A stretch of 14,561 nucleotides of DNA. Origin: a virus. Lineage: Duplodnaviria > Heunggongvirae > Uroviricota > Caudoviricetes. The stretch lies in IMG/VR virus record IMGVR_UViG_2534682108_000011; one strand, written 5' to 3'. The notes beneath the pieces were generated by a model, which was given only the letters and a program-made list of their open reading frames with translations, ran no database searches and was not told the origin of the DNA. Shown piece after piece: positions 1-14,561 of the stretch (positions are counted from its first letter, which is position 1; every line of letters starts with the position of its first letter). The position numbers were made by a program, and so were the translations under genes.

Positions 1-165
1 ATGGCAAAGCCGATCATCACGCTCAATGGCCTAAAAATCGTCATTATGTTGGGAATGCTGGTCATTATTCTCTGCGGTATCCGTTTTGCCGCCGAGATCA
101 TCGTGCCGTTTATTCTCGCATTATTTATTGCTGTTATATATAACTTATTTCGCATAACACATTGA
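1..165 (+). pseudogene. 5' fragment of a host inner-membrane transporter gene (AI-2E/TqsA-like N-terminus) fused to island DNA; 54 codons then stop
   Basis: ATG at 1; translation [45 protein letters not shown] is a hydrophobic TM-helix N-terminus I recall as TqsA/YdgG-like. After about codon 46 the sequence becomes AT-rich and the frame ends at TGA 163-165. Below the 60-aa cutoff of the ORF track. Identity is from memory only. Confidence 0.4.
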
Positions 166-211
166 TTTAATTAAATAATTAACACCGCAAAAAGTGCCAA
201 AAATCGCAAAA

Positions 212-233
212 TGACTACACCAGTGACTACACC
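212..233. repeat. Tandem direct repeat TGACTACACC x2 (12-bp period), followed by small palindrome ACCGTTCGGT (231-240)
   Basis: Read directly: tgactacacc ag tgactacacc. Lies about 70-90 bp inside the left junction; candidate recombinase arm-type site. Confidence 0.35.
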
Positions 234-250
234 GTTCGGTGCACTGTATG

Positions 251-276
251 AAACAACGTGGAACAAATAGACACAA
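251..276 (+). promoter_or_regulatory. Site A: three hexamers AAACAA / GAACAA / ACACAA at exact 10-bp spacing (251, 261, 271)
   Basis: aaacaaCGTGgaacaaATAGacacaa; the 15-mer AACAACGTGGAACAA is identical to the one at 7715-7729. Confidence 0.5.
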
Positions 277-496
277 GAAATATACAGGCGGATCATCTTT
301 CCAGGGGGAAGCACACCAATTCATGAGGGGCGTTAATGTCGATATGGGGATCCCCACCTACCGGAATTTTTTTCCGGTTAAACGTTAATCAGGCTGGTGG
401 GCTTTACCTGTTCGGTAGGTGTTATGATTATCGTAATACCTTTCCCCCAATGGGGTAAAAGCATCAACCGTAACGAAAGTCGTTATGGTTGCCACT

Positions 497-863: not shown

Positions 864-1145
864 TTACCGCCGCAACCGCTCCGGCTTCTTCCAGTGGTAC
901 GTTATTTTCTCCTTCTCCCGATACATCTCCACGCGGCGACGGTAGGCCAGCAACTCAAGAACTCTGGTTCGTATGTTGCGCATATCCACGCCATTAAGTT
1001 CTATACCATCACGGCGCATCACCTCAGCAACAACACGCGCATAGTTTTCGGCTGTCACGCTGTCCGGCTGCGTGGCCTGTTCGTCAGCCTGCTGGCTGAT
1101 TCCGGCAACGCGGCGGATTAATCCCGTTATTTCGGCTTCTGTCAT
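864..1145 (-). CDS. Hypothetical protein (93 aa) immediately downstream of terL
   Basis: ORF with ATG at 1145..1143 and an SD-like TGAGGT about 9 nt upstream; starts 14 nt after the terL stop. Charged, non-repetitive composition. No family recognised. Confidence 0.5.
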   Translation of the reverse strand: MTEAEITGLIRRVAGISQQADEQATQPDSVTAENYARVVAEVMRRDGIELNGVDMRNIRTRVLELLAYRRRVEMYREKEKITYHWKKPERLRR

Positions 1146-1158
1146 GCTGCTGACCTCA

Positions 1159-2820
1159 TTACACCCCGCTAAATTCTTCCAGTTTCTGGCGGTGGCTGTC
1201 GCTTATATCAAAAGCAAAATCCTCATGCTCTGCCTGGAATGTACCAAACGCCATCAGCGCCGCCACGCTCGGGTCTATCTTGTTCGGTGATTTTTTCTTG
1301 TTCGGCTTGATATTGGCGTTCGCGTCACTCTGCATCACGACGTTACTCATCGACCAGGACAACACCGGATCGCCACGATGCACAATCACCCTGCGGTTAA
1401 CAAAAACTTCGAACGATTTCGCCGCCGGACTGAATCTGAGGTAGGTTTGCGGGAACGGCTCCACCTCAAAACCTGCCCCCTGTAATTGCGTTCTGAGATG
1501 CGTGGCGTTCCACGTATCAAAGCCCACCAGCCTGATATTAAATTTCTCCGCGTCCTGCATGATGTCATCTCTGATCCGGTCGTAATCAATGCAGTCGCCA
1601 GGCGTTGTGCGTATCCAGCCTGCTTTAGCCCACTGACGATAGATGGCGCGGTTTTTATTGGCGGGGTTCTGTAGCTGAAATTCCGGCAGATAGTGACGGG
1701 AAACCAGCATAATGGTTTTACCGACCGGAAAGGCATAGCACACGCTGGAAATATCGCTGGTTGATGATAAGTCCAGCCCCGCGTAACACTCCTGGCCGTG
1801 TAAATCTTCCTCCGTGAACGTTCCGGCACACTCAGCCCATGCGCCGTTACCCATCCACGGGGTAGCCCCCTGGCACCAGATATTAAATCGCTTTGTCATC
1901 ATCTCCACCCACTGCGACGGAATACCCCGCGCTTTCTGGATGGTTGAGGCCAGTTTTTCACGATCGACGGAAACATCAATATTAGGGTTCGCCTTTATCC
2001 ACATCGCCGGATCATCAACCTCGTTTTCGTCGTCCAGTTCGTAAATCAGTACAAAAATTGAATCGTTAACCTCTTCGCCGTCCAGGATCTGGCAGCAATA
2101 ATCATAGTGCTGTTTACAGGCTGAAACGACGTTGCTGCCTGATGTGGTAATGGCAAATAACAGCCCTTCGGGACGTGCGCCCATCCCCAGCTCAAGCGCG
2201 GAATAAACGCCGTTATCGGGGTGCAAGTGGTATTCGTCCACGATGGAAAGGCTTGGGTTTGTTCCCTCGATGGTTGCCGCTTTTGCTGCCAGCGGCTTTA
2301 ACAGGCTGTTGCTTTTCGGGTGTATCACCTTATGCGCCTGAATATTCACCCGCCTGCGTAACGGTAGGGATAAAAGGCACATCTGACGCGCATCATCAAA
2401 GACGATCCGCGCCTGGTCACGGCTCACCGCTGCGGTGTAGATATCCTGCTGACCGTTCTCCATAATCAGAAACCAGTTAGCCAGAATCGCGGCGGTCGTG
2501 GATTTCGCATTTTTGCGCGGCACTTCGATAAAGGCGCTCGTGTATTTGCGCCGTCCGGTGGCCTTAACCTTAAAGCCGAGGATGCACGCAAAGGCGAACT
2601 GCTGCCACGGCTCCAGCTCAATGGGTCTGCCACGCATCGGTCCTTTTACGTGCGGGCACACCCTGGAAAAGGCAATAAACCGCTCCACAACCTCACGATC
2701 GAACGTGTAAAGGGGGCTTTTAAGGTCCGAAAAGTACCGTTTAACGGCCTGTTTCAGCCGTTTACAGGCCGGAATTTTGCCCGTTTTTACGTCTTCTGCG
2801 TACTTATTCCAGGCGGTCAA
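1159..2820 (-). CDS. terL: Terminase large subunit (553 aa)
   Basis: N-terminus MTAWNKYAEDVKTGKIPACKRL is typical of TerL; ATPase P-loop-like PRKNAKST; length and position after terS. Confidence 0.9.
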   Translation of the reverse strand: MTAWNKYAEDVKTGKIPACKRLKQAVKRYFSDLKSPLYTFDREVVERFIAFSRVCPHVKGPMRGRPIELEPWQQFAFACILGFKVKATGRRKYTSAFIEVPRKNAKSTTAAILANWFLIMENGQQDIYTAAVSRDQARIVFDDARQMCLLSLPLRRRVNIQAHKVIHPKSNSLLKPLAAKAATIEGTNPSLSIVDEYHLHPDNGVYSALELGMGARPEGLLFAITTSGSNVVSACKQHYDYCCQILDGEEVNDSIFVLIYELDDENEVDDPAMWIKANPNIDVSVDREKLASTIQKARGIPSQWVEMMTKRFNIWCQGATPWMGNGAWAECAGTFTEEDLHGQECYAGLDLSSTSDISSVCYAFPVGKTIMLVSRHYLPEFQLQNPANKNRAIYRQWAKAGWIRTTPGDCIDYDRIRDDIMQDAEKFNIRLVGFDTWNATHLRTQLQGAGFEVEPFPQTYLRFSPAAKSFEVFVNRRVIVHRGDPVLSWSMSNVVMQSDANANIKPNKKKSPNKIDPSVAALMAFGTFQAEHEDFAFDISDSHRQKLEEFSGV

Positions 2821-3160
2821 GCTCGTCCTCTTCTTCTGTTTCCGGTGGGTTTTTACGGCGGCTTATCGGGTCAAAACCGAGCAAGGAGGCCATTTTTATC
2901 ATCACCCTTTCAGCGTCTGATTTCGCGCTTAATGCGGGGTTTCTGCTCTCGCCGCCCTGACTGTTAACAATGCTGAACCCGCGCGCCGCAAGGTCTGCGA
3001 CGGCTTTCCGGTAAATGGAGTAGTTGACACAATACAGTTCCAGATTGCTCCAGTCGGCGGGGGTCAGGTCTCCCCGTTCCGCAAGCTGCCGCGATTTTTC
3101 CCGCCACTGCTTCACGGCGATGTCATCCAGGTAGGCGGGGGCTTTCGGTGGTCTTGCCAT
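2804..3160 (-). CDS. terS: Terminase small subunit, P27-family-like (118 aa)
   Basis: N-terminus MARPPKAPAYLDD and acidic C-terminal tail EEEDELDRLE; overlaps the terL start by 17 nt. Confidence 0.75.
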   Translation of the reverse strand: MARPPKAPAYLDDIAVKQWREKSRQLAERGDLTPADWSNLELYCVNYSIYRKAVADLAARGFSIVNSQGGESRNPALSAKSDAERVMIKMASLLGFDPISRRKNPPETEEEDELDRLE

Positions 3161-3282
3161 GCTTATTTTTCGTCAGATTATTTTTCAAAAAATTCCCGTG
3201 CATAAAAATTTGAGGAGGCGTTCGGTGCCCGGCGGGGTCGGGTTTGTCCTGAAAACGCCCCCCACCCCGTCATACAGCCTCA

Positions 3283-3465
3283 TCAGCGATTGCGGAAACA
3301 TTCCATAACCTCGCGGTCACGGTCGGTTAATCGCTTCGCTGTGATGCGTTCTGCGCGTCCTGACGCTTTATCTTTATGCCCTGTTTCCTGTGTCTTCCAT
3401 GCGTCACGCTGCCTTATAAGTCCACGGATAAGGCGGTTTTGTTCCCGCTCATTCATCAGCGTCAT
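3283..3465 (-). CDS. Possible small ORF (60 aa) in the HNH-terS intergenic region
   Basis: MTLMNEREQNRLIRGLIRQRDAWKTQETGHKDKASGRAERITAKRLTDRDREVMECFRNR; protein-like composition but no clear SD; overlaps the HNH stop. Could instead be non-coding cos-region DNA. Confidence 0.25.
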   Translation of the reverse strand: MTLMNEREQNRLIRGLIRQRDAWKTQETGHKDKASGRAERITAKRLTDRDREVMECFRNR

Positions 3466-3889
3466 ACATCCAGTTATTGCGGTTAGCGGCCCGTTCTTCC
3501 TCTTCATGAAATCCACCTGCGGCACGCTTGCTTTTTGTTGCCGGATCAAGCCATTTCGTTTTCTGGTTATGACACGCCTGGCACAATGGTTGATGGTTCC
3601 ATTCGGGCCAGAAGAGAACATCATCACCGCCATTAATCGGGATAATGTGATCCACCACCACGGCGGGCGTATATATCCCCTTCTCAAGGCATCGCACGCA
3701 TAACGGGTTTTTACTCAGATACATGGCGCGGTATTTGTCCCACTGTCTGGAGTACCCACGCGCGCGGCGGTGTCCTCGTCTGGCATCCTCTGCACGCCAT
3801 GCCGCCCGCCTGTGCTCCTCACACTTGCCGGACTTCACGCGCCTGTTACAGCCTGGTTCTGTGCATCGTCTTAATGGTTGCCACGGCAT
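3449..3889 (-). CDS. HNH endonuclease (146 aa), packaging-associated
   Basis: Cys pairs CTEPGC and CVRC, plus VDHIIPINGGDD ... NHQPLCQACHNQKT HNH motif. Sits next to terS/terL as in HK97-like cos phages. Confidence 0.85.
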   Translation of the reverse strand: MPWQPLRRCTEPGCNRRVKSGKCEEHRRAAWRAEDARRGHRRARGYSRQWDKYRAMYLSKNPLCVRCLEKGIYTPAVVVDHIIPINGGDDVLFWPEWNHQPLCQACHNQKTKWLDPATKSKRAAGGFHEEEERAANRNNWMYDADE

Positions 3890-4185
3890 CAGTACACCCC
3901 CACATCACGGTAAGCCGTCCAGAGCGCGCCAATCGTCATGGGTACGCGCGTTTTTGCGTTATCCGCTACCAGCTGGCGATTCTCGTACAGGTGAGCGATA
4001 AACATCATGCAGCCAATCTTTATGGCTGGCGTGAACTCCAGCCCGTCATCAAAGCGCCTGCCTATATGTATCTGGCACGCCTCAAGCGATGCGGCAATGT
4101 ATCCGCTGATTAACTGGTCTTCCTCGTCGCCATCGATGCGGCAATGGAGTTTCACTTCTTCCAGGGTGATAAGTTCTTCTGTCAT
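3889..4185 (-). CDS. Head-tail connector protein, gp6-like (98 aa)
   Basis: MTEELITLEEVKLHCRIDGDEEDQLISGYIAASLE matches the conserved N-terminal pattern of this family; start overlaps the adaptor stop. Confidence 0.7.
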   Translation of the reverse strand: MTEELITLEEVKLHCRIDGDEEDQLISGYIAASLEACQIHIGRRFDDGLEFTPAIKIGCMMFIAHLYENRQLVADNAKTRVPMTIGALWTAYRDVGVY

Positions 4186-4520
4186 TTTTCCGCGCCCTCA
4201 CGACAAAGAATTTCAAGGCGTGTCCTGGCGGCATCCGGCAGCGGCTGCCCGATGATATTCAGTACACGCCCCGCCAGCGGCCCCGTACTGACCTTTATCC
4301 GGCTGGTGGCGTTGATGTCCTTCCGGTACCGTATCCAGATCCTTACGGTACCAATCGCCAGCTCTGCACCCGATGAAATGGCCTCCTTGCTGCTGATCAT
4401 GTTCACGCTTGCCCAGAGTGTGTGACCGTCCTCCCACGTTTCGAGTATTTCGCCGGTTATATCCCTGGTCTGTTTCAGGGTCTGAATCGTTACCCTGTCA
4501 CGCAGTCGCCCTATGTTCAT
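4182..4520 (-). CDS. Head-tail adaptor / head-closure protein (about 112 aa from the MNIGRLRDRVTIQ start)
   Basis: MNIGRLRDRVTIQ is the family-typical start. ATG at 4520 abuts the portal stop (4517); the longer ORF-track start at 4562 would overlap the portal by 46 nt. Confidence 0.7.
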   Translation of the reverse strand: MNIGRLRDRVTIQTLKQTRDITGEILETWEDGHTLWASVNMISSKEAISSGAELAIGTVRIWIRYRKDINATSRIKVSTGPLAGRVLNIIGQPLPDAARTRLEILCREGAEK

Positions 4521-5728
4521 TCCGGTTTTTCTCCCTCGCTGATTTTTACTTCCTGTTTCCATGCCTGGCTGAACTCATCACCACCATCACGCGGGGACAG
4601 CCCTTCACGTTCGCGGGCTTCGTTCGGGCACATAACGCCGGATTTGATGCCGCGTTCATAGGTGGCAAAGCGTTCGCCAGGTGTGGCCCGTAACAGGTCC
4701 GCGCTGTCAAACTCCACCTGATACCGGATACCAGGTACAGGCGAGGCCACCAGCAGGGCGTTTTTTATCTGCTGCTCAAAGTTCGCCAGCCACGGGCGCA
4801 TCGTCATAGTGAGAAATGCGCGGCTTGCCTCGCTGAAATTGCTGTAGGTGCTGTTGCTGTATTCCTGCAAAAAAATCGGCGAGACGTTGAACATTCGGGC
4901 GATGTCTTCAATGGTGAAGCGACGGGAGGCCAGCCATTCAGCATCCTGATTACTCATGCCCAGCTGCTGATAGCTCATACCCCCTTCAAGGATGGGCGTT
5001 TTTCCGGCGTTTCTGGCCCCTTTGTAGCGTTCCAGTGCGGCTAATGCCTGTTTGCCTTTCACGCCGTCCAGCCATTCGCCTGACGTGATAACCCCTGCCG
5101 CCATCATGCCATCACGCATCACGCTCGCGCCGTGGCGTTGTTGGGCCAGCCCAAGCCCCAGCGATTCGCGGCAGATGGTTACAGGTGAGCGCCCCATAAA
5201 ACCGTCATCCGTGGAGTAACGAAGGTGGAGAACCTCCCACGGTAAATAGTTGCGGGTGTTTCCGGTGTAGGCGTCAGTGATGCAGTAGCGCCAGTTGTGT
5301 TCGCCTGTCTGCTCCACGTTCACCGACTGCGGCGGGTAAGGATGTAAAGCCACCGGAAAACCATCACGCCCCCACTGAATCACCGCATAAGCATTACCGT
5401 TTAACAGGCAGTGGCGGATCATCATTCGCTTAAACTGGTAGGGAGTCTGCCACGCGTTCGGGCGCTCGTTGAGGATGTGATCGACCGGATGAGAATCAAG
5501 CCACTCTCGGGCCTCCTTCCCCTTCTCATTGCGTACCAGGTACAGGTAACACGGCATGGTAGCCACCGCCTCAGAGATGACCGTGACGGCGTTCATGACG
5601 GCGGGCAGTGATTCCGCTGTCCCCGATGATACGTACTCACCCGACCCCGTGTTCGATGTGCCGGCCAGCGCCATAAATTCATCCAGCGTCATGCTGCGCT
5701 GCTCTTTTTTTCTTCTGAAAGGCCACAT
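4517..5728 (-). CDS. Portal protein, HK97 family (403 aa)
   Basis: Size, position between protease and adaptor, and overall sequence character of HK97-type portals. Confidence 0.85.
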   Translation of the reverse strand: MWPFRRKKEQRSMTLDEFMALAGTSNTGSGEYVSSGTAESLPAVMNAVTVISEAVATMPCYLYLVRNEKGKEAREWLDSHPVDHILNERPNAWQTPYQFKRMMIRHCLLNGNAYAVIQWGRDGFPVALHPYPPQSVNVEQTGEHNWRYCITDAYTGNTRNYLPWEVLHLRYSTDDGFMGRSPVTICRESLGLGLAQQRHGASVMRDGMMAAGVITSGEWLDGVKGKQALAALERYKGARNAGKTPILEGGMSYQQLGMSNQDAEWLASRRFTIEDIARMFNVSPIFLQEYSNSTYSNFSEASRAFLTMTMRPWLANFEQQIKNALLVASPVPGIRYQVEFDSADLLRATPGERFATYERGIKSGVMCPNEAREREGLSPRDGGDEFSQAWKQEVKISEGEKPE

Positions 5729-5729
5729 A

Positions 5730-6302
5730 TCACACCCCCGCTAAATCCGCCCACCAGCGGCGATTATCCGCACGCGGCATTTTTTCGGGGTGCTGCTCAT
5801 ACAGGGAACGGCGGGCCAGCTCCACGCCGGAATCAGGGTAAGCCGGTACGGATGTAACGGTAATTTCGTACAGTTCCGCCACCAGCACGGTGCGCACGCA
5901 TGGATCTGTTGTGGTATCCCATACATCCTTACGGGAACGAAAGCCAAAGCTCATGCCGGATATATCACCACGTTTAACCAGTTCGATAACGTCACGCCCT
6001 GTGCTGGTATCCGGTGGGGTAAGTTCAAAGCGTAACCCTGTGTCGTCCTCTTCCAGTTTCAGCGTGCCGGAACGGGTGCGCCCCAGTAACATGCTGTGGT
6101 CATGCTCATACAGGCCGCGAACGTCATTACCCGCCGCAAGCCACTCAGTAAACGCCCCCCGCTGGAATTTTTCGTAAAACTCCCCCCATAGCAGTTCTGA
6201 AAGCTTATCCCAGCGAACAACGTAGCCCGTCAGCGTACCGGCTCCGCTGGTGGTGATTTCCGATGACCGGATTTCCATACTCTTCATAATTTTTTCACCC
6301 AT
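5730..6302 (-). CDS. Prohead maturation protease, HK97 family (about 190 aa; true start may be an internal Met)
   Basis: MEIRSSEITTSG ... GYVVRWD ... GMSFGF are typical of HK97 prohead proteases; lies between capsid and portal. Confidence 0.85.
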   Translation of the reverse strand: MGEKIMKSMEIRSSEITTSGAGTLTGYVVRWDKLSELLWGEFYEKFQRGAFTEWLAAGNDVRGLYEHDHSMLLGRTRSGTLKLEEDDTGLRFELTPPDTSTGRDVIELVKRGDISGMSFGFRSRKDVWDTTTDPCVRTVLVAELYEITVTSVPAYPDSGVELARRSLYEQHPEKMPRADNRRWWADLAGV

Positions 6303-6341
6303 AAAACACTAAAGGGGCTTTTAAGCCCCTTCTGTATGCTG

Positions 6342-7499
6342 TTAATCGTCGTCCTGTGGCAGTTCCAGAATCTTGATCGCGTTCGAATCCACCACGCCAC
6401 CGCCTAAATATTTCTGCGTGAAAATTTTGATGAAGCCCGGCTCTGTGAGGTTGTCCGGTCTGGTGCGAACACCTGTTTCGTGATCAACAATGTAGTAACC
6501 GCGTTTGAAGTCACCCAGGGCAATAACGTTATCAGGCATAAACTCCAGATATTCGACCGGAAGGCCCAGCAACGTATCAGGATCACCCGCCTGTAAACGG
6601 TCGCGCCAGATGTAATCACCGTTCGCGTTCTTCACCTTCTGAAGTTTTGCCGCCGTCGTGGAGTTAACCACCCAGACCGCGTTTTTGCGGTATTTTTTAC
6701 GTAATGCAAATTTCAGGTCGATCAGCGGGTCCGCAGATGTCCACGCCAGAGATTCGGAAGGTTTAATTACCTGCAACGTACCAAAATCACGCTCTTTGTC
6801 GTTCTTCTCTGCACGGGGTACGGATAAAAAACCTTTTGCTTTTTTGTCACCGTCGCCCACAACCAGATCGCTTTCTTCGGTTTCCGTGAAGGTGTCGCCA
6901 ATCTCACCCGTCAGCCATGAAAGGATGTCCACATCGGAAAAATCCACGATTTCCTGTGTGGTGCGCGGGTACGCATAGACCGGATACAGCTTAATGCTCA
7001 CCTCGTTAATCTGCGGGGTGCTGGTCTGTTCGCGTGCCTTACCCTCTTCACCGTGGTTAACGGTCGCACCGCCAGCGGAAACAAGCTGCTTAAACTCGTT
7101 GCTGCTGATTTTCTTCACGGTACAGATGCGGCGCATGGTGGATTCATCCGCCAGCATTCGCATGATTTCGGTGTTCAGCTCGGGGATAACGGTATAACCA
7201 CCATCAGCGGGAACGCCTGTACTTAATGCGCGGGTTTCACCTGTCAGGATGTAGTTGCGTAGTTCTGCGGGGTCAGTGGTCTGACTGCTTTTACCTGGCT
7301 TGCTGCGCTCTTCGTCTGCAATGGCTTCAAGGCGGGAAATGTCTTTATCGAGGGATTCAGCTTTAGTGCGTAATTCGTCAAATTTTGCGCCCTCAGCATC
7401 GTTAAGACTGCGGTTTTCTTTTTCCGCGTTCTCCAGCATGTCGCGCATCTGATTTTTAATGGCGGTTTTCTGCTGGCGTAATTCGATTATTCTCGGCAT
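6342..7499 (-). CDS. Major capsid protein, HK97 fold (385 aa) with N-terminal coiled-coil delta/scaffold domain
   Basis: Charged, helical N-terminal ~100 aa followed by a capsid-like domain; adjacent protease. Confidence 0.9.
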   Translation of the reverse strand: MPRIIELRQQKTAIKNQMRDMLENAEKENRSLNDAEGAKFDELRTKAESLDKDISRLEAIADEERSKPGKSSQTTDPAELRNYILTGETRALSTGVPADGGYTVIPELNTEIMRMLADESTMRRICTVKKISSNEFKQLVSAGGATVNHGEEGKAREQTSTPQINEVSIKLYPVYAYPRTTQEIVDFSDVDILSWLTGEIGDTFTETEESDLVVGDGDKKAKGFLSVPRAEKNDKERDFGTLQVIKPSESLAWTSADPLIDLKFALRKKYRKNAVWVVNSTTAAKLQKVKNANGDYIWRDRLQAGDPDTLLGLPVEYLEFMPDNVIALGDFKRGYYIVDHETGVRTRPDNLTEPGFIKIFTQKYLGGGVVDSNAIKILELPQDDD

Positions 7500-7713: not shown

Positions 7714-7739
7714 GAACAACGTGGAACAACCACGAACAA
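7714..7739 (+). promoter_or_regulatory. Site B: GAACAA x3 at exact 10-bp spacing (7714, 7724, 7734), upstream of the capsid/packaging operon
   Basis: gaacaaCGTGgaacaaCCACgaacaa. On the transcribed minus strand the proximal TTGTTC could act as a -35 with a TATTTT -10 about 16 nt downstream (weak inference). Confidence 0.55.
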
Positions 7740-7752
7740 ATAATTTACAAAA

Positions 7753-7779
7753 AATGACAAAAAGCCGGATTTCTCCGGC
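7753..7779 (-). terminator. Rho-independent terminator after the PerC-like gene
   Basis: Stem GCCGGA/TCCGGC (7764-7779, loop TTTC) followed on the minus-strand RNA by UUUUUGUCAUUUUUU; 7 bp past the stop at 7786. Confidence 0.65.
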
Positions 7780-7785
7780 TGTTGA

Positions 7786-8058
7786 TTAGCTGTCTGGGTA
7801 ATTACGCCATATTTCATCGCTTACACCATCTATACCCATTTCAGCATAAGTGCGATCTACTGCCTTTCTCAGGTCTCCGAAGTTATCCGGCGGCTCCGGT
7901 GGCTTCTGTGCCTTCCTGGAACATTCCAGCCGTCGCATCGTAACCTGATGCCGTTCCTTGTCTGTCTCCACCAGCAGCATGACTTCACCCCATCGCGCCG
8001 CCGCCCTCCGGTAAAAGCCTTTCGCCTCGAGTTCTTCCGCTATGCGGTCATGTACCAT
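7786..8058 (-). CDS. PerC/ANR-family-like transcriptional regulator (about 90 aa)
   Basis: MVHDRIAEELEAKGFYRRAAARWGEVM resembles the conserved N-terminus of PerC-like proteins (from memory). Start at 8058 chosen because of a GAGGGGG SD and no overlap with SSB; the 130-aa ORF-track start is a GTG inside SSB. Confidence 0.5.
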   Translation of the reverse strand: MVHDRIAEELEAKGFYRRAAARWGEVMLLVETDKERHQVTMRRLECSRKAQKPPEPPDNFGDLRKAVDRTYAEMGIDGVSDEIWRNYPDS

Positions 8059-8068
8059 CGCCACCCCC

Positions 8069-8479
8069 TCAGAACGGAATACCGTCACCGTAAGGGTCAT
8101 CGCCTCCCGCTGGTGGCTGATTACCCTGTGTGCCTGTGGTTTTGCGTCTGTTCCCGCCAGGAAGTGCCGCACGGGCACTGATTACGCTGTCTGCAATAAC
8201 CTGATAACCCTGCCGCGTTTCCCCATTCTGTCCGGTCCACTGGCTGACCTGCATCGTGCCGGATACGCTGGCAACGTCGCCTTTTTGATGTTTAGCCAGG
8301 AAGTCGGCCTGCTTACCAAATGCGATGACCGATAGCCATAACGTCGCCTGCCCATCCTGCGCCTGACTACATGGCAGCGATACCGCCATACGCGCCAGCG
8401 TCATCGGTGTACCCTTGCTGGTCTGTTTTACCTGCGGGTCGTCCACCAGCCGCCCGTAAGCTGCTATCTGTGCTGTCAT
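8069..8479 (-). CDS. ssb: Single-stranded DNA-binding protein (136 aa)
   Basis: OB-fold-like core, Gly/Pro/Gln-rich linker and acidic C-terminal tail ending DDPYGDGIPF (compare canonical SSB ending DDDIPF). Confidence 0.8.
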   Translation of the reverse strand: MTAQIAAYGRLVDDPQVKQTSKGTPMTLARMAVSLPCSQAQDGQATLWLSVIAFGKQADFLAKHQKGDVASVSGTMQVSQWTGQNGETRQGYQVIADSVISARAALPGGNRRKTTGTQGNQPPAGGDDPYGDGIPF

Positions 8480-8754
8480 GATTCCACCTCTCCGGTTTTA
8501 ACGTTGATGGTTGTTACCTGTTCCGCTTCGGCAATCTCCCGCTCTGTCAGCGTGGCAAAATTTGCCGCCGTCGTGGTCATGAATGCGCTTATCAGTTCGG
8601 GATGTGCTTTCGCGTATCCTTCCCCCGCGTGGCGGTCTATCGTTCTGATTGCCACCTTTAAAGCGTGCTCTGTCATGTCTAACGCGCGATATTTCGGTTC
8701 TGTTCTGTCTCTGCGTTTTTTGAGTGATTTATTAAATTTCCCTGAAGTGTGCAT
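8476..8754 (-). CDS. Hypothetical protein (92 aa)
   Basis: ORF with a GAGGGGG SD-like sequence upstream; stop overlaps the ssb start. No family recognised. Confidence 0.45.
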   Translation of the reverse strand: MHTSGKFNKSLKKRRDRTEPKYRALDMTEHALKVAIRTIDRHAGEGYAKAHPELISAFMTTTAANFATLTEREIAEAEQVTTINVKTGEVES

Positions 8755-8802
8755 ATTTATTTTTACCCCCTCGTTTAAAAAGTTTTGAGTTGTGCCTCCC
8801 CT

Positions 8803-9028
8803 TGTCTACCTTATCTACCTTAGTGGCCCTCATACCAGTAATGGCGCGGCTTTCAGCGGGGTAGAGTGCTTTTATCCACTATCTACCCCGTGTCTACCTC
8901 CCTGTCTGATTCAGGTAAAATCAGGTAGAGAGGGTAGATAGTGGGTAGACAGTAAAAAAAGGCTATCTACCTAACTTAATGCACTGAATTAAATGTATTT
9001 TTCTTTACTCAGGTAGACAGGGTAGACA
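8803..9028. repeat. Iteron cluster, putative replication origin: at least 10 copies of TCTACC / GGTAGA in both orientations, flanking an A/T-rich segment (about 8950-9010)
   Basis: Copies at 8803-8810, 8812-8819, 8859-8865, 8881-8887, 8891-8898, 8924-8930, 8933-8940, 8944-8951, 8964-8971, 9012-9019, 9021-9028. Ends 15 bp downstream of the primase stop. Confidence 0.7.
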
Positions 9029-9042
9029 GCAATTACAAAAAA

Positions 9043-10797
9043 TTATAAAAACGCGTCGCACTCGTCTGTTGTTATTGCGTTAGTCTGCGTTACTCCCTTA
9101 ACTTTCCGCGTAATATATTCATGTCCGTAAACTTTCGCGGCTGGCTTCATAGCCTTGCCAAAGTCATTTACGTTTAGCGGTTTGCTCCTGCCTGCGTACG
9201 CCATAAACGCCAGATAGACGCGGTAAAGGCTGTTTCTGGTCGTGTACTTCACTGAATCGCCACCGCCGCCCATCATCAGGCCGCGTGCTTCCTCCAGAAA
9301 ATTCAGGAACTGGCAAAACTCAATAACCGGATCCGTCTGTTGCTTTATTGCCAGAGCTTCATCACCGTCACGCTGTTCCAGTAGTAAAGCCCGTGCCTTC
9401 TCAGGGTCGGTAAAGTTCGCCAGCAATCGGCGGATAATGACAGGGATTTCAGCCGCGATCTTTTCCGGTAGCTCCCTGTCTTTTTCGGCCTCACTGACGA
9501 TATTGTCGAAACGGAAAATCACGCGACGACGTGCCACACCTCCGGCCCGTTCGGTGAATATCATCGGGTTATTGTTGGTCGCCAGCACCACCGCCCTGAT
9601 TACCGCCGTGAAACGCTTTTCGTATTTCGGGTTAATTTCCACGGGGTCACCGCCCGTGATTTTCTTGATGCCCGTTCCTTCGCCTGTATATTTCGGCTGG
9701 TCAGCCAGGACGATAAGACGACTCCCGACAACCTGCGCACGTCCACCAGCATCATCAAGCGATGTCATTTCAGCGCTTACCGTGTTCTGTTTCCCTGCCA
9801 GAAGGCTGGCTATGTGTGTGAATGTACTTTTACCGCTCCCGCCGTCTCCGGTGGCCTCAATAAACATCTGCCAGTCGTACCGGTTCGCCATAATCATGTA
9901 CAGCGCGGCACATATACGCATCATCTTGCGCGGGTCTTTTCCGGCTGCGTGCTCAAGCCATTTATGAAAGTTTGGCGCGTTATCGCGGATGTTCTCCCCT
10001 GGTGCTGGTGGCGTGTACTCAATGCCGTTGTGCGTGGTGATCCAGTTCTCCGGCGTGTGCGGGGAAAATTCCCCCGTTTTCAGGTCAAGCGCACCATTGG
10101 CGAACGGCAACAAATCGCCGGACGGCTCGCCCATTGGTTCGGCAATAACTTTTAACGCTTCCACGGCGTTATTGATTACGCGCTTGCTGAAAGTGGCCCT
10201 GTGCTCTGAATAGATCGCCACCATTTCGCGGCTAAGTTCCATTGTGCTGACCGGACACCATACCCCGCCGCGCCATACGTGAACGATTTCACTTTCAGGA
10301 TGTACGCAAACGCCATCAAAGCGATCGGCAAGCAGCTGCGCGCGCTCACTGTCCGCCATCTGCGAAAGTTGCGCCTTTTGCTTTACCGGAAGCTCAATGA
10401 CCAGACCATCAGAAAGATTCTGGCGCTCACGGGCCAGATATTCGCGCCAGTTCTCCACCTTCTGACCGTGCATACCATCAGGGTAAAAATTTGCATCCTG
10501 TACGCCTGCCGCCGCCAGCTTCTGACCAATCGCCTTTATCATTACTGGCGCAAGATATCCGGCCCTGAATATGCGCACGGATTTTCTGCCTTCCGGCACA
10601 ATTTGCAGCTTATCCAGTTCGGATAACTGCTGCTCCCCAAGCCACACAGGAGGCTCATTATCTCCGGCCATACGCGCGTCATGTTCCTGCCATTGTTTTG
10701 CGTGTGACCAGGCATCACTACCCGCAAAAATAATGACTTCTGTTTCTTTGTGTTTTATGCCGCGTGACTGCTGTTTTACGTTCGGTGCCAGTTTCAT
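9043..10797 (-). CDS. Replication initiator: DNA primase with C-terminal P-loop NTPase/helicase domain (584 aa)
   Basis: Walker A GDGGSGKST in the C-terminal half; size and layout resemble P4-alpha-family primase-helicases; origin iterons immediately downstream. Confidence 0.8.
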   Translation of the reverse strand: MKLAPNVKQQSRGIKHKETEVIIFAGSDAWSHAKQWQEHDARMAGDNEPPVWLGEQQLSELDKLQIVPEGRKSVRIFRAGYLAPVMIKAIGQKLAAAGVQDANFYPDGMHGQKVENWREYLARERQNLSDGLVIELPVKQKAQLSQMADSERAQLLADRFDGVCVHPESEIVHVWRGGVWCPVSTMELSREMVAIYSEHRATFSKRVINNAVEALKVIAEPMGEPSGDLLPFANGALDLKTGEFSPHTPENWITTHNGIEYTPPAPGENIRDNAPNFHKWLEHAAGKDPRKMMRICAALYMIMANRYDWQMFIEATGDGGSGKSTFTHIASLLAGKQNTVSAEMTSLDDAGGRAQVVGSRLIVLADQPKYTGEGTGIKKITGGDPVEINPKYEKRFTAVIRAVVLATNNNPMIFTERAGGVARRRVIFRFDNIVSEAEKDRELPEKIAAEIPVIIRRLLANFTDPEKARALLLEQRDGDEALAIKQQTDPVIEFCQFLNFLEEARGLMMGGGGDSVKYTTRNSLYRVYLAFMAYAGRSKPLNVNDFGKAMKPAAKVYGHEYITRKVKGVTQTNAITTDECDAFL

Positions 10798-11093
10798 TTT
10801 TTACCCCTGAATCCGTTAATCATGGTTTTCAGCTTCTGGATGTTTGCCCGTGCCCTGGCGTTGCTGGTGGGCACGTTATGCGGCGCGGTCTGTACCAGAG
10901 AAAAATCACGCCGGAACTGATAAACAGGCATCACGCAATCATATTCGTAACCTTCACGGCGGTAAGTTACGCACCGTCCCGCCACGCCCTTAATCATTAC
11001 CGTGCCGCCGTACTGGTCGCGGTAAATATCGCCGCGCGTAAATTTAGGGTGAGTGTTGCCACTGGCAGTTAAGCCAGAATATTTAAGTTTCAT
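10794..11093 (-). CDS. Hypothetical protein (99 aa)
   Basis: ORF whose stop overlaps the primase start by 4 nt. No family recognised. Confidence 0.5.
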   Translation of the reverse strand: MKLKYSGLTASGNTHPKFTRGDIYRDQYGGTVMIKGVAGRCVTYRREGYEYDCVMPVYQFRRDFSLVQTAPHNVPTSNARARANIQKLKTMINGFRGKK

Positions 11094-11098
11094 TATTT

Positions 11099-11332
11099 TT
11101 ATTCTCCGGTGTGCTGTTCTTTATATATATCGTGCAATAGATCTATTTCTTGCAGTTCCATTATTACAGGCTCAAGAAGCGTTATTAATGCCGTGGCAAT
11201 TCTTGATTTTTGTTTGTTGCGTTCATTGTCGCCAAGTGTTTCAAGCCATATGCGTAATATTTCCATCATGCTTTCACTGTGAGAAAGTGCAAGAAATGCG
11301 CGGTCTATTGTTTCAAGGTAAATATCACGCAT
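11099..11332 (-). CDS. Hypothetical protein (77 aa)
   Basis: ORF with ATG at 11332, a GGGGA SD-like sequence upstream and a possible coupled upstream small ORF. No family recognised. Confidence 0.45.
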   Translation of the reverse strand: MRDIYLETIDRAFLALSHSESMMEILRIWLETLGDNERNKQKSRIATALITLLEPVIMELQEIDLLHDIYKEQHTGE

Positions 11333-11547
11333 ATTAATCCCCGTCCGTCGTTTTTCTTAAAATAACCTCTGTCACGAAATCAGCATAATCGGCGACGATA
11401 TTCAGTACATCAAGCCCCGTTGATTTATATTCTCTCGTGGAAAGTAAGAAAAAAGCCGCTCTAATAAGCTCTGGCATTGACGAAAGCGCATCAGCCGCAT
11501 CATCAGGAACGCCGGAAAATTACTGTTTCAGGGAATTAAAACGATCA

Positions 11548-11787
11548 TCACGCATAACCCCCCCCATTTTCACAATCAGCAATCAGGATGGCTTTAGCCT
11601 CATTCAGCGCCATATCCGCACTAAGTTGCATAACCGCCAGCGAATGAGGAACGAAAGCCCCTGCATATTCTGTTTCACTGGTGGCGTGCTTATGCGCCAT
11701 GTCAGCAATAACAGAAATATCAATAAGCGCGTGCATCAGCGTAGTGAGCGCGGCGGCTGCTGCGTCCGGTGTGGTTTTATTGCACAT
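11548..11787 (-). CDS. Hypothetical protein (79 aa from the MCNKTTPD start)
   Basis: Strong SD AGGAGG (complement of 11794-11799) 6 nt upstream of ATG 11787..11785; the ORF track's longer start lacks an SD. Confidence 0.5.
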   Translation of the reverse strand: MCNKTTPDAAAAALTTLMHALIDISVIADMAHKHATSETEYAGAFVPHSLAVMQLSADMALNEAKAILIADCENGGGYA

Positions 11788-11977
11788 GGCACACCTCCTG
11801 ACGAATACGGGCGGCGAATACAGCAACACAACCGGACGGGCAACGGCTACGCGCTTCGCGTTCCGTCCAGGCGGTTACGTGGATTATTTGAGATTCTCCG
11901 GCACTCAGTGCCAGAAAACGCCACACAAAGGCCGTTTGTGTGTGTACAAGGTGTGGTATATGATTTACGGCAACCAT
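11777..11977 (-). CDS. Possible small leader ORF (66 aa), or an untranslated leader with hairpins
   Basis: ATG 11977..11975 preceded by AGGAG at 5-nt spacing; its stop overlaps the next gene's ATG. It also contains a hairpin (11922-11942) plus U-rich tract, so it may be a regulatory leader instead. Confidence 0.25.
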   Translation of the reverse strand: MVAVNHIPHLVHTQTAFVWRFLALSAGESQIIHVTAWTEREARSRCPSGCVAVFAARIRQEVCHVQ

Positions 11978-12781: not shown

Positions 12782-12970
12782 TTAATGAACTGCCTTGCAG
12801 CTATCCTTCCAGGCCAGAACCTCGGATAAAGACCAGCCAACGGAACGACCGCCAAGTTTACGACGTGATGGGAATTGTCCGGCCTTTTCCAGGCGGTAGC
12901 GGCATGAGCGGCTAAGGCCTGTTAGCTTTTCGCATTCTTTTTCACGTATAAACCGATCAGTGCTTAACAC
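12782..12970 (-). CDS. alpA: AlpA-family regulator / excisionase-like protein (62 aa, GTG start)
   Basis: LTGLSRSCRYRLEKAGQFPSRRKLGGRSVGWSLSEVLAW is the AlpA/Vis/TorI winged-helix signature; SD AAGGGG 5 nt upstream of GTG at 12970. Confidence 0.85.
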   Translation of the reverse strand: MLSTDRFIREKECEKLTGLSRSCRYRLEKAGQFPSRRKLGGRSVGWSLSEVLAWKDSCKAVH

Positions 12971-13251: not shown

Positions 13252-13297
13252 TTGTTCGTAGTTGTTCCGCATTGTTGCTCATTGTTGCACGTTGTAT
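13252..13297 (+). promoter_or_regulatory. Site C: five hexamers TTGTTC, TTGTTC, TTGTTG, TTGTTG, TTGTAT at exact 10-bp spacing (13252, 13262, 13272, 13282, 13292)
   Basis: Read directly; reverse complement of the GAACAA motif at sites A and B; between the int stop (13344) and alpA. Confidence 0.55.
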
Positions 13298-13343: not shown

Positions 13344-14561
13344 TTATTTTCTTCTGGCTACGGGTAGCGTGGTTACGTTTTCATGTGTTCCCGCCAGTAT
13401 CCCTAACCGCTCCGTCCACATATCCAGCGCATTGCGTTTAGCATCCAGATAACGGGAATGATTATAAACTCGCTGCATTCCTGGCATCTGGTGGCCTGTA
13501 AGCTGCTCCACGACATGCGGATCAACGCCTAAATCGTTCAGCATGGTTGTAAAGGTGCGCCGGATGTCATGCAGTGACCAGTGAGGATGATTAAGCCTCC
13601 TGTGCGCTAATCTTCCATACTGCGATACGCTGGCCTCCTGTTTCACTGCCCCCAGCAATAAGCCCGTGTGCCTGTTCTGCTCCACCAGCTGCGTGACGAA
13701 CGGCAGGATCGCTTCCGGTATGGGCCGGAATATTGCGACCTTCGTTTTGCTGTGCTCCTTCGGAACGGTCCATAGCATTTCCGTAAAATCCCACTCCCCG
13801 ATCTCCGATAACCTCAGTTCTACCGTTCTGGCTCCGAAGACAATCAGGAGGCGGATTAACGCGACGTAGTAAGGGGAAAATATTTTTTTATCCAGCGCCT
13901 GCAATAACTCGCCCAGTTCTTTGGTGCTTAAGACACGTTCGCTTATATCCGGTTTTTTCCCAACGTCCGCCACGTTCAGATCGTCCAGAACGTTGCTGAT
14001 TGCATAGCGCCGCCTACGGCAGAACTTAAGCGCCTGTTTGCACGCCTGTAGCACGAATCCGGCAGTAACAGGCGTTCGCTTTGCCACCTGGTCAAAACAG
14101 GCCAGCCAGTGCCGTAGCTCGCATTTATCTAGCGGCATAGCACCAATCTGCTGTATTACGTGATTATTAAGTCGCCTTTTCAGGGCGATATAATCCACGC
14201 GGTTTTCCTTTACGTAATACTCAAGCCAGTAGGTGAGCGCATCGCCAACCGTTACGGGCTTTAACGCTTCCTGTACGGTGTAATTCATCTCATGACGTGG
14301 ATTTTTCCCCTCAGCCAGCCATGCGCGGCACTGGGCGGCTTTTTCCCTGGCTGCTTTCAGACTCAGATCAGGATAATTTCCCAGCTTAATACGTTCCGGT
14401 CGTGTCTCTCTTCCCGTTCCTGCCCTGTAAGTGAAATACCAGGTTAATTTCCCTGATGTTAAATATTTCACGCTCAGATTTCCGCCATCGCTATAAAACG
14501 TGTTTTTCTCCGCTGGCTTACCATGAAGTTTCCTTAGCAATGTGTCGCTCAGTTTGTTCAT
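13344..14561 (-). CDS. int: Tyrosine site-specific integrase, P4-like (405 aa), start codon at the window edge
   Basis: N-terminal arm-binding-type domain (KLSDTLLRKLHGKPAEKNTFYSDGGNLSVKYLTSGKLTWYFTYR), C-terminal catalytic region with HDIRRTFTT and conserved His/Tyr context. Confidence 0.9.
   Translation of the reverse strand: MNKLSDTLLRKLHGKPAEKNTFYSDGGNLSVKYLTSGKLTWYFTYRAGTGRETRPERIKLGNYPDLSLKAAREKAAQCRAWLAEGKNPRHEMNYTVQEALKPVTVGDALTYWLEYYVKENRVDYIALKRRLNNHVIQQIGAMPLDKCELRHWLACFDQVAKRTPVTAGFVLQACKQALKFCRRRRYAISNVLDDLNVADVGKKPDISERVLSTKELGELLQALDKKIFSPYYVALIRLLIVFGARTVELRLSEIGEWDFTEMLWTVPKEHSKTKVAIFRPIPEAILPFVTQLVEQNRHTGLLLGAVKQEASVSQYGRLAHRRLNHPHWSLHDIRRTFTTMLNDLGVDPHVVEQLTGHQMPGMQRVYNHSRYLDAKRNALDMWTERLGILAGTHENVTTLPVARRK

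Follow-up and report, generated by a model that had tools for sequence, protein, structure and literature searches.

The left junction of a cf-PICI phage satellite in the Escherichia coli gene tqsA, with a proposed anatomy of its attachment arms

Gene content of the island and its relatives

The window that we analyzed, by which we mean the whole stretch of 14,561 nucleotides, opens with a short piece of the host gene tqsA and continues into an integrated element (Table 1). Pfam searches identified an integrase (PF13356 and PF00589), an AlpA protein (PF05930), and a D5-type primase (D5_N, DUF5906), together with an HK97-type major capsid protein, an S78 prohead protease, a portal protein, an HNH endonuclease, TerS (Terminase_4), and TerL. 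The RefSeq annotation of near-identical copies adds head-tail connector, head closure, SSB, PerC, and Icd-like proteins, and there were no tail or lysis genes among the annotated features of these near-identical genomes. The integrase gene of the window is an open reading frame of 405 codons, and the packaging genes are all full length, with strong Pfam matches. No whole-element counterpart was found among 50,697 phage records.

Table 1. Features of the window discussed in the text, with strand and the evidence for each
Feature	Position	Strand	Evidence
Host DNA, tqsA codons 1-43 (start codon to Ile43), residual 5' fragment	1..128	+	100% identity to K-12 tqsA
att identity block TGCTGTTAT, attL copy, 9 bp	129..137	+	Common to attL, attR, and empty attB
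First island bases, 8-codon extension YNLFRITH and TGA (163-165)	138..165	+	Frame translation; junction comparison
IHF consensus match AATCAATGTGTTA (WATCAANNNNTTR), 18 bp from the core, candidate P' arm bend site	155..167	-	Consensus match
Conserved left-end (P' arm) segment	156..407		About 89-90% identity among classical PICIs and cf-PICIs with this integrase family
Tandem TGACTACACC-AG-TGACTACACC, candidate integrase arm-type sites, P' arm	212..233	+	Conservation, rarity, PF13356 in the integrase
Three 10-bp-phased boxes, (G)AAACAA / GGAACAA / ACACAA, candidate AlpA sites, P' arm	250..276	+	Phased-pattern enrichment
Packaging/capsid module: 93-aa ORF, TerL, TerS, HNH, head-tail connector, head closure, portal, prohead protease, HK97-type major capsid	864..7499	-	Pfam, RefSeq, 97% nt identity to the EcCIEDL933-type island
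Three exact phased GAACAA boxes, between PerC terminator and capsid operon	7714..7739	+	Pattern search
Primase/replicase (D5_N, DUF5906, Pox_D5)	9043..10797	-	Pfam
alpA (PF05930), PICI cycle activator (role per EcCICFT073 and EcCIEDL933: PMC6092414; bioRxiv 10.1101/2022.09.08.507074)	12782..12970	-	Pfam
Phased GAACAA/CAACAA boxes, int-alpA spacer, upstream of alpA	13252..13277	-	Pattern search
Tyrosine integrase (PF13356 and PF00589), open from the ATG at 14561	13344..14561	-	Pfam; annotated GTG start 12 nt past the window

The window is nearly identical to a stretch of NZ_CP062876.1 (E. coli O157:H16), and the core-to-core size of the island in the near-identical genome is 14,618 bp. The two sequences differ by a single T in the T-run at 367-373 (7 against 6), and the integrase gene, which is open in the window (13344-14561), is annotated as frameshifted in NZ_CP062876.1. 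These differences indicate that the window derives from a slightly different assembly or strain.

One end of the island carries int, alpA, and pri/rep of the Gram-negative PICI type, with 85-98% nucleotide identity to EcCICFT073. The island also has a capsid and packaging set of its own, on the minus strand and in the order capsid...connectors, hnh-terS-terL, and with its 14,618 bp and no tail or lysis genes it fits the size of a capsid-forming phage-inducible chromosomal island (cf-PICI), about 15 kb. On the basis of gene content, gene order, and size, we classify the element as a cf-PICI.

The published prototype of this family is EcCIEDL933, the island between phoQ and roxA (ycfD) in O157:H7 (Alqurainy et al., bioRxiv 10.1101/2022.09.08.507074), which is experimentally mobile: it is induced by a helper phage via AlpA and uses its own small capsids and helper tails (bioRxiv 10.1101/2022.09.08.507074). 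In a comparison with this EcCIEDL933-type island, 80% of the window aligned at about 95% identity, with 97% nucleotide identity across the packaging module. Both islands have the gene order int-alpA-pri ... capsid-protease-portal-connectors-hnh-terS-terL, and both have the arm doublets and phased boxes described below. EcCIEDL933 differs from the window's element in that its phoQ-roxA(ycfD) site is intergenic, its core is AAATATGTCC, and its insertion disrupts nothing. The primase region of the window also resembles that of the classical PICI EcCICFT073 and not that of EcCIEDL933. This mosaicism extends over positions 7835-11798, where the SSB-primase region is closer to EcCICFT073 (93.6%) than to the EcCIEDL933-type island, which has a different primase (DUF927), whereas the packaging module is EcCIEDL933-like (97%). 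A hairpin followed by a T-run (AACAGCCGGAGAAATCCGGCTTTTT, 7760-7785, minus strand) lies right after the PerC gene and divides the regulatory and replication genes from the capsid operon.

Between attL and the last ORF of the packaging operon there is a 700-bp noncoding stretch with two repetitive regions. Positions 450-620 hold nested, long, imperfect inverted repeats (451-476/480-505, 499-531/537-569, and 581-599/600-618), including the near-perfect palindromes GATACCCCAAATTTGGGTATC and GAGTTGCAGATCTGCAACTC; this region differs from island to island and matches no Rfam family, and it could serve as a terminator block, for packaging, or as an array of protein-binding sites. Direct repeats at a spacing of 48 bp or multiples of it, with ATCAGCGGGTTAGCG units at 708, 756, and 852, lie at 694-869, immediately downstream of the 93-aa ORF. 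The number and arrangement of these units differ in related islands, and they may be binding sites for terminase or for a replication protein. The window has no lambda-type cosN, which excludes a cos site of the classical PICI kind as the identity of the structured region (450-860).

Island junctions and the split tqsA gene

The original prediction placed an island junction inside a coding gene at the start of the window, with a TqsA-like N terminus that runs from an ATG into island sequence and stops at 163-165. Comparison with complete genomes bore this out. Positions 1-137 are 100% identical to the 5' end of K-12 tqsA, as they are to that of about 5,200 other genomes, and the ATG at positions 1-3 is the tqsA start codon. 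The translation of frame 1 (...ALFIAVI) matches TqsA through Ile46, after which the frame adds YNLFRITH and terminates at the TGA; in the PGAP annotation of near-identical genomes, this 5' fragment is a partial pseudogene. The description of the island's first bases as AT-rich holds in part, since GC content is lower there (40% over 138-380, compared with 51% for the whole window), but the difference is mild and the tqsA fragment itself has a GC content of 44%.

Comparing the junctions with the empty site, as had been proposed for locating the breakpoint, defined a 9-bp block at 129-137. This block, TGCTGTTAT, is the sole sequence common to attL (the window), attR (locus L003, 17747-17755), and the empty site of K-12, and it corresponds to tqsA nucleotides 129-137, or codons 43-46. 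Its reverse complement, ATAACAGCA, is the published att core of EcCI042 and EcCIK1516, two PICIs with tqsA as their att gene (Fillol-Salom et al. 2018, ISME J, Table S1, PMC6092414). Likewise, the GGACATATTT listed for ycfD-phoQ in the same table (PMC6092414) is the reverse complement of the AAATATGTCC that we derived here. Compared through this published table, EcCI042 and EcCIK1516 are like the window in their target, tqsA, and in their 9-bp core. They differ from it in being 11-kb classical PICIs that remodel helper capsids, whereas the window's element has its own capsid, portal, protease, connector, HNH, and terminase genes.

The remainder of the gene and a duplicated core had been expected beyond position 14561, and both were found there, about 190 bp past the window end. 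In NZ_CP062876.1, and also in FORC_069, the rest of tqsA (nucleotide 129/138 to the stop) lies directly beyond the integrase gene, the start of which is about 175 bp from attR. The same identity block is thus present at both junctions and in the empty site, with int beside one junction, which is the pattern of site-specific integration. The circular form is predicted to carry an attP junction that contains GATAAAATGCTGTTATATATAAC and likewise CACTAAATGATAAAATGCTGTTATATATAACTTATTTCGC, leaving a restored attB of TTATTTATTGCTGTTATTCTTAACCCG in the chromosome. There were no tRNA or tmRNA genes in the 20.5-kb locus that comprises the island and its flanks, and no Rfam family matched in the window. 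FORC_069 additionally has a Rac-like prophage in ynfG, about 11 kb upstream of tqsA (locus L001, 1-9100).

An insertion of this kind could either inactivate the gene or bring a replacement 5' end at the far junction, and the sequence of attR favors inactivation. In the tqsA frame, attR reads ...KNTK-stop-stop-NAVILNPL (...KNTK-stop-stop-NAVILNPLVQHM), with the stops TGA TAA one codon before the core. The earliest in-frame start candidates, GTG51 and ATG54, are downstream of the insertion and inside the N-terminal hydrophobic stretch of TqsA, most of which is made up by the missing 45 residues. Because the in-frame TGA TAA precedes the core, a replacement 5' end at attR is ruled out, and an island without such a replacement would leave tqsA inactive for as long as it is resident. 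PGAP annotates both pieces of tqsA as partial pseudogenes. Scans for promoter consensus sequences found none at attR and a single weak plus-strand match at attL (268-296), no more than expected by chance. We therefore favor a tqsA that is split and inactivated while the island is resident and that is not repaired; an N-terminally shortened TqsA may be made from GTG51 or ATG54.

The disruption nevertheless appears to be fully reversible in sequence terms. When the two halves were joined in silico at the core, an intact TqsA of 344 aa resulted in three of three genomes, identical to the K-12 protein in two of them and one residue different in the third. The halves themselves are undecayed, with synonymous changes only in two of the three genomes.

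To see how often the site is used, we matched a 200-bp probe across it to 5,423 complete E. coli genomes. The site was uninterrupted in 5,171 of these and split in the other 252 (4.6%); the left junction of the window was present in 208 genomes, and at least 80% of the whole element in 155. Occupied sites occur in strains of varied serotype and source. Three different islands, with lengths of 11.7, 14.6, and 15.7 kb, have the same tqsA core. The shortest, in strain W24, is a classical PICI with the window's integrase type, and its integrase is identical to that of FORC_069 over the N-terminal 95 residues. The gene is split at this site in 252 genomes and at one shared core in three islands, and precise excision at that core restores it in silico. 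In strain 2 HS-C (H96), the 200-bp probe matched in two pieces over 408 bp, indicating that a short stretch has been inserted or duplicated locally, in or close to the att site; it might be a scar or a small insertion.

Several earlier studies have recorded tqsA as a target. Bobay et al. (2013, PMC3603311) counted it among the core genes disrupted by integrated elements, and Mageeney et al. (2020, NAR, PMC7192596) reported islands of 11, 15, and 16 kb in tqsA, scored them as domain-disrupting, and made the gene a candidate for regulated gene integrity. The TIGER islands of the latter study, Eco282.16.tqsA and Eco557.15.tqsA (15-16 kb) and Eco33.11.tqsA (11 kb), lie inside tqsA and disrupt its Pfam domain, and their sizes match those of the cf-PICI and classical PICI occupants that we found. 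In that work (PMC7192596), regulated gene integrity was proposed for the tqsA islands, which were not classed as satellites and were presented without an arm-site analysis. The sharing of att sites between the cf-PICI family and classical PICIs has also been described (Alqurainy et al., bioRxiv 10.1101/2022.09.08.507074).

Architecture of the attachment arms

The left arm contains an exact tandem repeat, as predicted: the copies of TGACTACACC occupy 212-221 and 224-233, a doublet for which the chance expectation is 0.01 per window, and they are the only copies of ACTACACC in the 14.5-kb window. Just past the window end, the interval from the int start to attR holds a second ACTACACC doublet with the same orientation. 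All islands that we fetched at both ends have exactly one such doublet per arm, and the loci that reach only the integrase end have one each. We aligned the integrase-proximal arm over four att-site lineages (tqsA, phoQ/roxA, abgR-side, and cspD-side). Three elements were invariant in all four, namely, the doublet, a pair of GAACAAG boxes with a 10-bp spacing, and an ACACTAA-T(G/T)ATAAA block just before the core, while the arm sequence around these elements has diverged. Given that the doublet is invariant and occurs once per arm, and that the integrase has a PF13356 arm-binding domain, the TGACTACACC doublets are best read as arm-type integrase sites. The original prediction had called both sets of left-arm repeats arm-site-like; this description suits the doublet well and the GAACAA boxes less well, as these are found at internal regulatory regions too.

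The doublet takes the form TGACTACACC-AG-TGACTACACC in islands of the tqsA type, compared with TAACTACACC and an AT spacer in the other three types (in the cspD type, the second unit is TGACTACACC). The N-terminal domain of the integrase may covary with the arm repeat, although with effectively two lineages to compare, this pattern is suggestive only. H81-type integrase matches that are without the N-terminal region are IS3-disrupted copies and are uninformative for covariation. The "att core" published for EcCIDI14, CGGTGTAGTTAATGGTGTAGTTAATT (Table S1, PMC6092414), which is listed under "IS110 transposase," is the reverse complement of AATTAACTACACCATTAACTACACCG. The arm doublet AATTAACTACACCATTAACTACACCG is present in both arms of every island in this family, and in strain E02 it is at 2753-2777 of locus L007. 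The EcCIDI14 "att core" is thus probably the arm repeat and not the true core, with the real junction masked by the IS beside int.

Closer to the core than the doublet is a candidate IHF site. The window has two matches to the IHF consensus, against 0.53 expected in 14.5 kb, and by eye an equivalent match, AATCAATGGGTTG, is at the corresponding place in the phoQ/roxA-type island.

The third element of the left arm is a set of boxes that had been described as three copies of GAACAA at 251-276. Three phased units do lie there, with a spacing of exactly 10 bp, but only one is an exact GAACAA (261-266), the others being AAACAA (251-256) and ACACAA (271-276). The pattern GAACAA-N4-GAACAA, allowing at most one mismatch, occurs five times in the window compared with 0.12 expected, and none of 200 shuffles reached five. 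The phased boxes are at four fixed places in the island, namely, both att arms (in the right arm at L003 17646-17661), the int-alpA spacer, and the region upstream of the capsid operon, and there were none in the approximately 20 kb of flanking host DNA per locus. Even in a diverged lineage with an AlpA that is 64% identical, CGAACC-N4-CGAACAA is still present upstream of alpA.

Published work on EcCICFT073 shows that induction and excision require AlpA, that expressing AlpA sets off int-dependent excision and replication, and that the protein activates the promoter of its own gene (PMC6092414). Given this autoactivation and the presence of the boxes in front of both alpA and the capsid operon, they are more likely to be AlpA sites than integrase arm sites. 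The activity of the EcCICFT073 int promoter is unchanged by AlpA (PMC6092414), a result that we regard as neutral, neither supporting nor excluding binding of AlpA in the arms. We assign these proteins to the repeats by analogy.

The comparison with the sister att site bears on the core itself. On the integrase side, homology between islands of the tqsA and phoQ/roxA types extends as far as ...TGATAAAA, and on the other side it resumes at ATTGATTTAATTAAA (window position 161). The islands differ in the approximately 45 bp between, a core-proximal segment that includes positions 138-165; homology to the EcCIEDL933 type begins only at 156-161. The reconstructed attP core of the phoQ/roxA type is a perfect TGATAAAA-TATGTCC-TTTTATCA, and in the same register the tqsA type reads TGATAAAA-TGCTGTT-ATATATAA. 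The sister attP thus suggests that the 7-bp overlap is TGCTGTT (129-135). This placement is uncertain because the putative C' core-type site in attP of the tqsA type agrees with the inverted C site at no more than five of eight positions. The integrases of the tqsA and phoQ/roxA (EcCIEDL933) types share 91% amino acid identity. Residues 1-95 hold 21 of their 36 differences and residues 96-205 another 10, which leaves only 5 for the catalytic domain.

The attP of lambda, P2, and P4 has inverted core-type sites, arm-type Int sites, an IHF site, and phased sites for the recombination directionality factor (the Cox boxes of P2, Xis in lambda). The arrangement described here is similar, with a core block, tandem arm repeats, an IHF consensus match adjacent to the core, boxes phased at 10 bp, and an integrase with an arm-binding domain. 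It differs in that both arms have an identical module of doublet plus boxes in one orientation and in that the boxes also occur at two internal regions.

We propose that the P4-type tyrosine integrase of the circular island recombined it into the chromosome at TGCTGTTAT, in codons 43-46 of the hydrophobic N-terminal stretch of tqsA. The left end would then retain the tqsA promoter and 45 codons, fused to eight island codons and a stop, and the right end would hold a promoterless tqsA remainder behind int. Outward from the core, the left arm would present an IHF-type bend (155-167), the two TGACTACACC units (212-233), and the phased boxes (250-276), and the right arm would present a doublet and boxes as in the left arm and in the same orientation. 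The N-terminal arm-binding domain of the integrase would link the doublets in the arms with the core. Once switched on by a helper phage, AlpA would bind the phased boxes and direct excision. In addition, it would be the activator of its own promoter and of the capsid operon, both of which have the boxes. Precise excision would restore tqsA.

This scheme raises the potential that the GAACAA boxes form an AlpA regulon, in which AlpA is a Cox/Vis-like protein acting both as the excision directionality factor and as an activator of late genes. Separately, a change of target from an intergenic site to the inside of tqsA may have taken place among integrases that are 91% identical, by a swap of the approximately 45-bp core cassette and about 11 substitutions outside the arm-binding domain (candidate positions 96, 119, 121, 129, 133, 174, 199, 200, 237, 248, and 314). 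We offer this pair of ideas tentatively and consider it rather more apt to be wrong than right.

Alternative readings and significance

We put at roughly 93% the probability that positions 1-380 are the attL of a cf-PICI phage satellite, close to EcCIEDL933 and inserted in tqsA, with the gene left unrepaired; the arm anatomy and the mechanism are proposals within this reading. That the 54-codon frame is instead a native small gene, or that a tRNA just past the window is the real att site, has practically no chance of being correct, since an uninterrupted gene of 345 codons runs across the insertion point in 5,171 of the 5,423 genomes, and neither the search for tRNA and tmRNA genes in the 20.5-kb locus nor the Rfam search of the window returned anything. 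It is also very improbable that the island repairs tqsA by supplying a promoter and a 5' coding end at the far junction, thereby keeping the transporter functional. Most site-specific islands that target genes do preserve them (PMC7192596), and by eye the P arm has a conserved, outward-facing TATAAT/GATAAT-like hexamer about 45 bp before the core. However, the frame at attR is closed by TGA TAA one codon before the core and offers no start until GTG51 or ATG54, the 45 residues lost span most of the N-terminal hydrophobic stretch, and the consensus promoter scan at attR was empty. Both pieces are pseudogenes according to PGAP, and in the TIGER test for domain disruption the tqsA islands were classed as disrupting (PMC7192596).

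A further possibility is that the junction is a fossil, the decayed and immobile remnant of an island whose repeats have no present function. The nearest record, NZ_CP062876.1, has a frameshifted int, an ORF with an internal stop, and a truncated Icd-like gene, and the length of the island at tqsA varies (11.7, 14.6, and 15.7 kb). Yet in the window int is open over 405 codons and the packaging genes are full length with strong Pfam matches, the tqsA halves are undecayed (synonymous changes only in two of three genomes), the occupied site is found in strains of varied serotype and source, and the arm repeats are invariant amid diverging arm sequence. Given as well that the sister island EcCIEDL933 is experimentally mobile (bioRxiv 10.1101/2022.09.08.507074), we consider a fossil quite unlikely. 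The splitting of tqsA could, alternatively, be an adaptive and reversible switch of the kind termed regulated gene integrity, in which helper induction leads to excision and turns AI-2 export on. The target is disrupted and not restored by island sequence (an in-frame TGA TAA, partial pseudogenes), excision restores a perfect ORF, different island types hit one codon, and tqsA is among the regulated-gene-integrity candidates (PMC7192596). We nonetheless judge such a switch unlikely. The site is occupied in only 4.6% of genomes, and sister integrases with 91% identity use intergenic sites, so gene disruption is not a habit of the family. In addition, PICI excision is tied to the lytic growth of the helper phage, when the cell is near death (PMC6092414), and a restored tqsA would therefore bring little benefit.

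Under the favored reading of a resident cf-PICI in an unrepaired tqsA, the feature is the known att site of a known satellite family, and the disruption of tqsA is already published. Our main result is thus confirmatory, and it pins the breakpoint to the published 9-bp core. The architecture of the arm module, the phased boxes in arms and promoter regions, and the core-cassette swap appear to be small additions, undescribed in the literature that we examined. An arm module at both ends, shared boxes, and a swapped core cassette would help in understanding and engineering PICI integration, and the retargeting of the integrase, if true, would be a natural template for reprogramming tyrosine integrases. 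For the host, our survey means that in about 1 in 20 complete E. coli genomes a phage satellite splits the AI-2 exporter gene tqsA. Such a TqsA knockout could alter quorum sensing and biofilm behavior in carriers, and helper-phage-triggered excision would reverse it.
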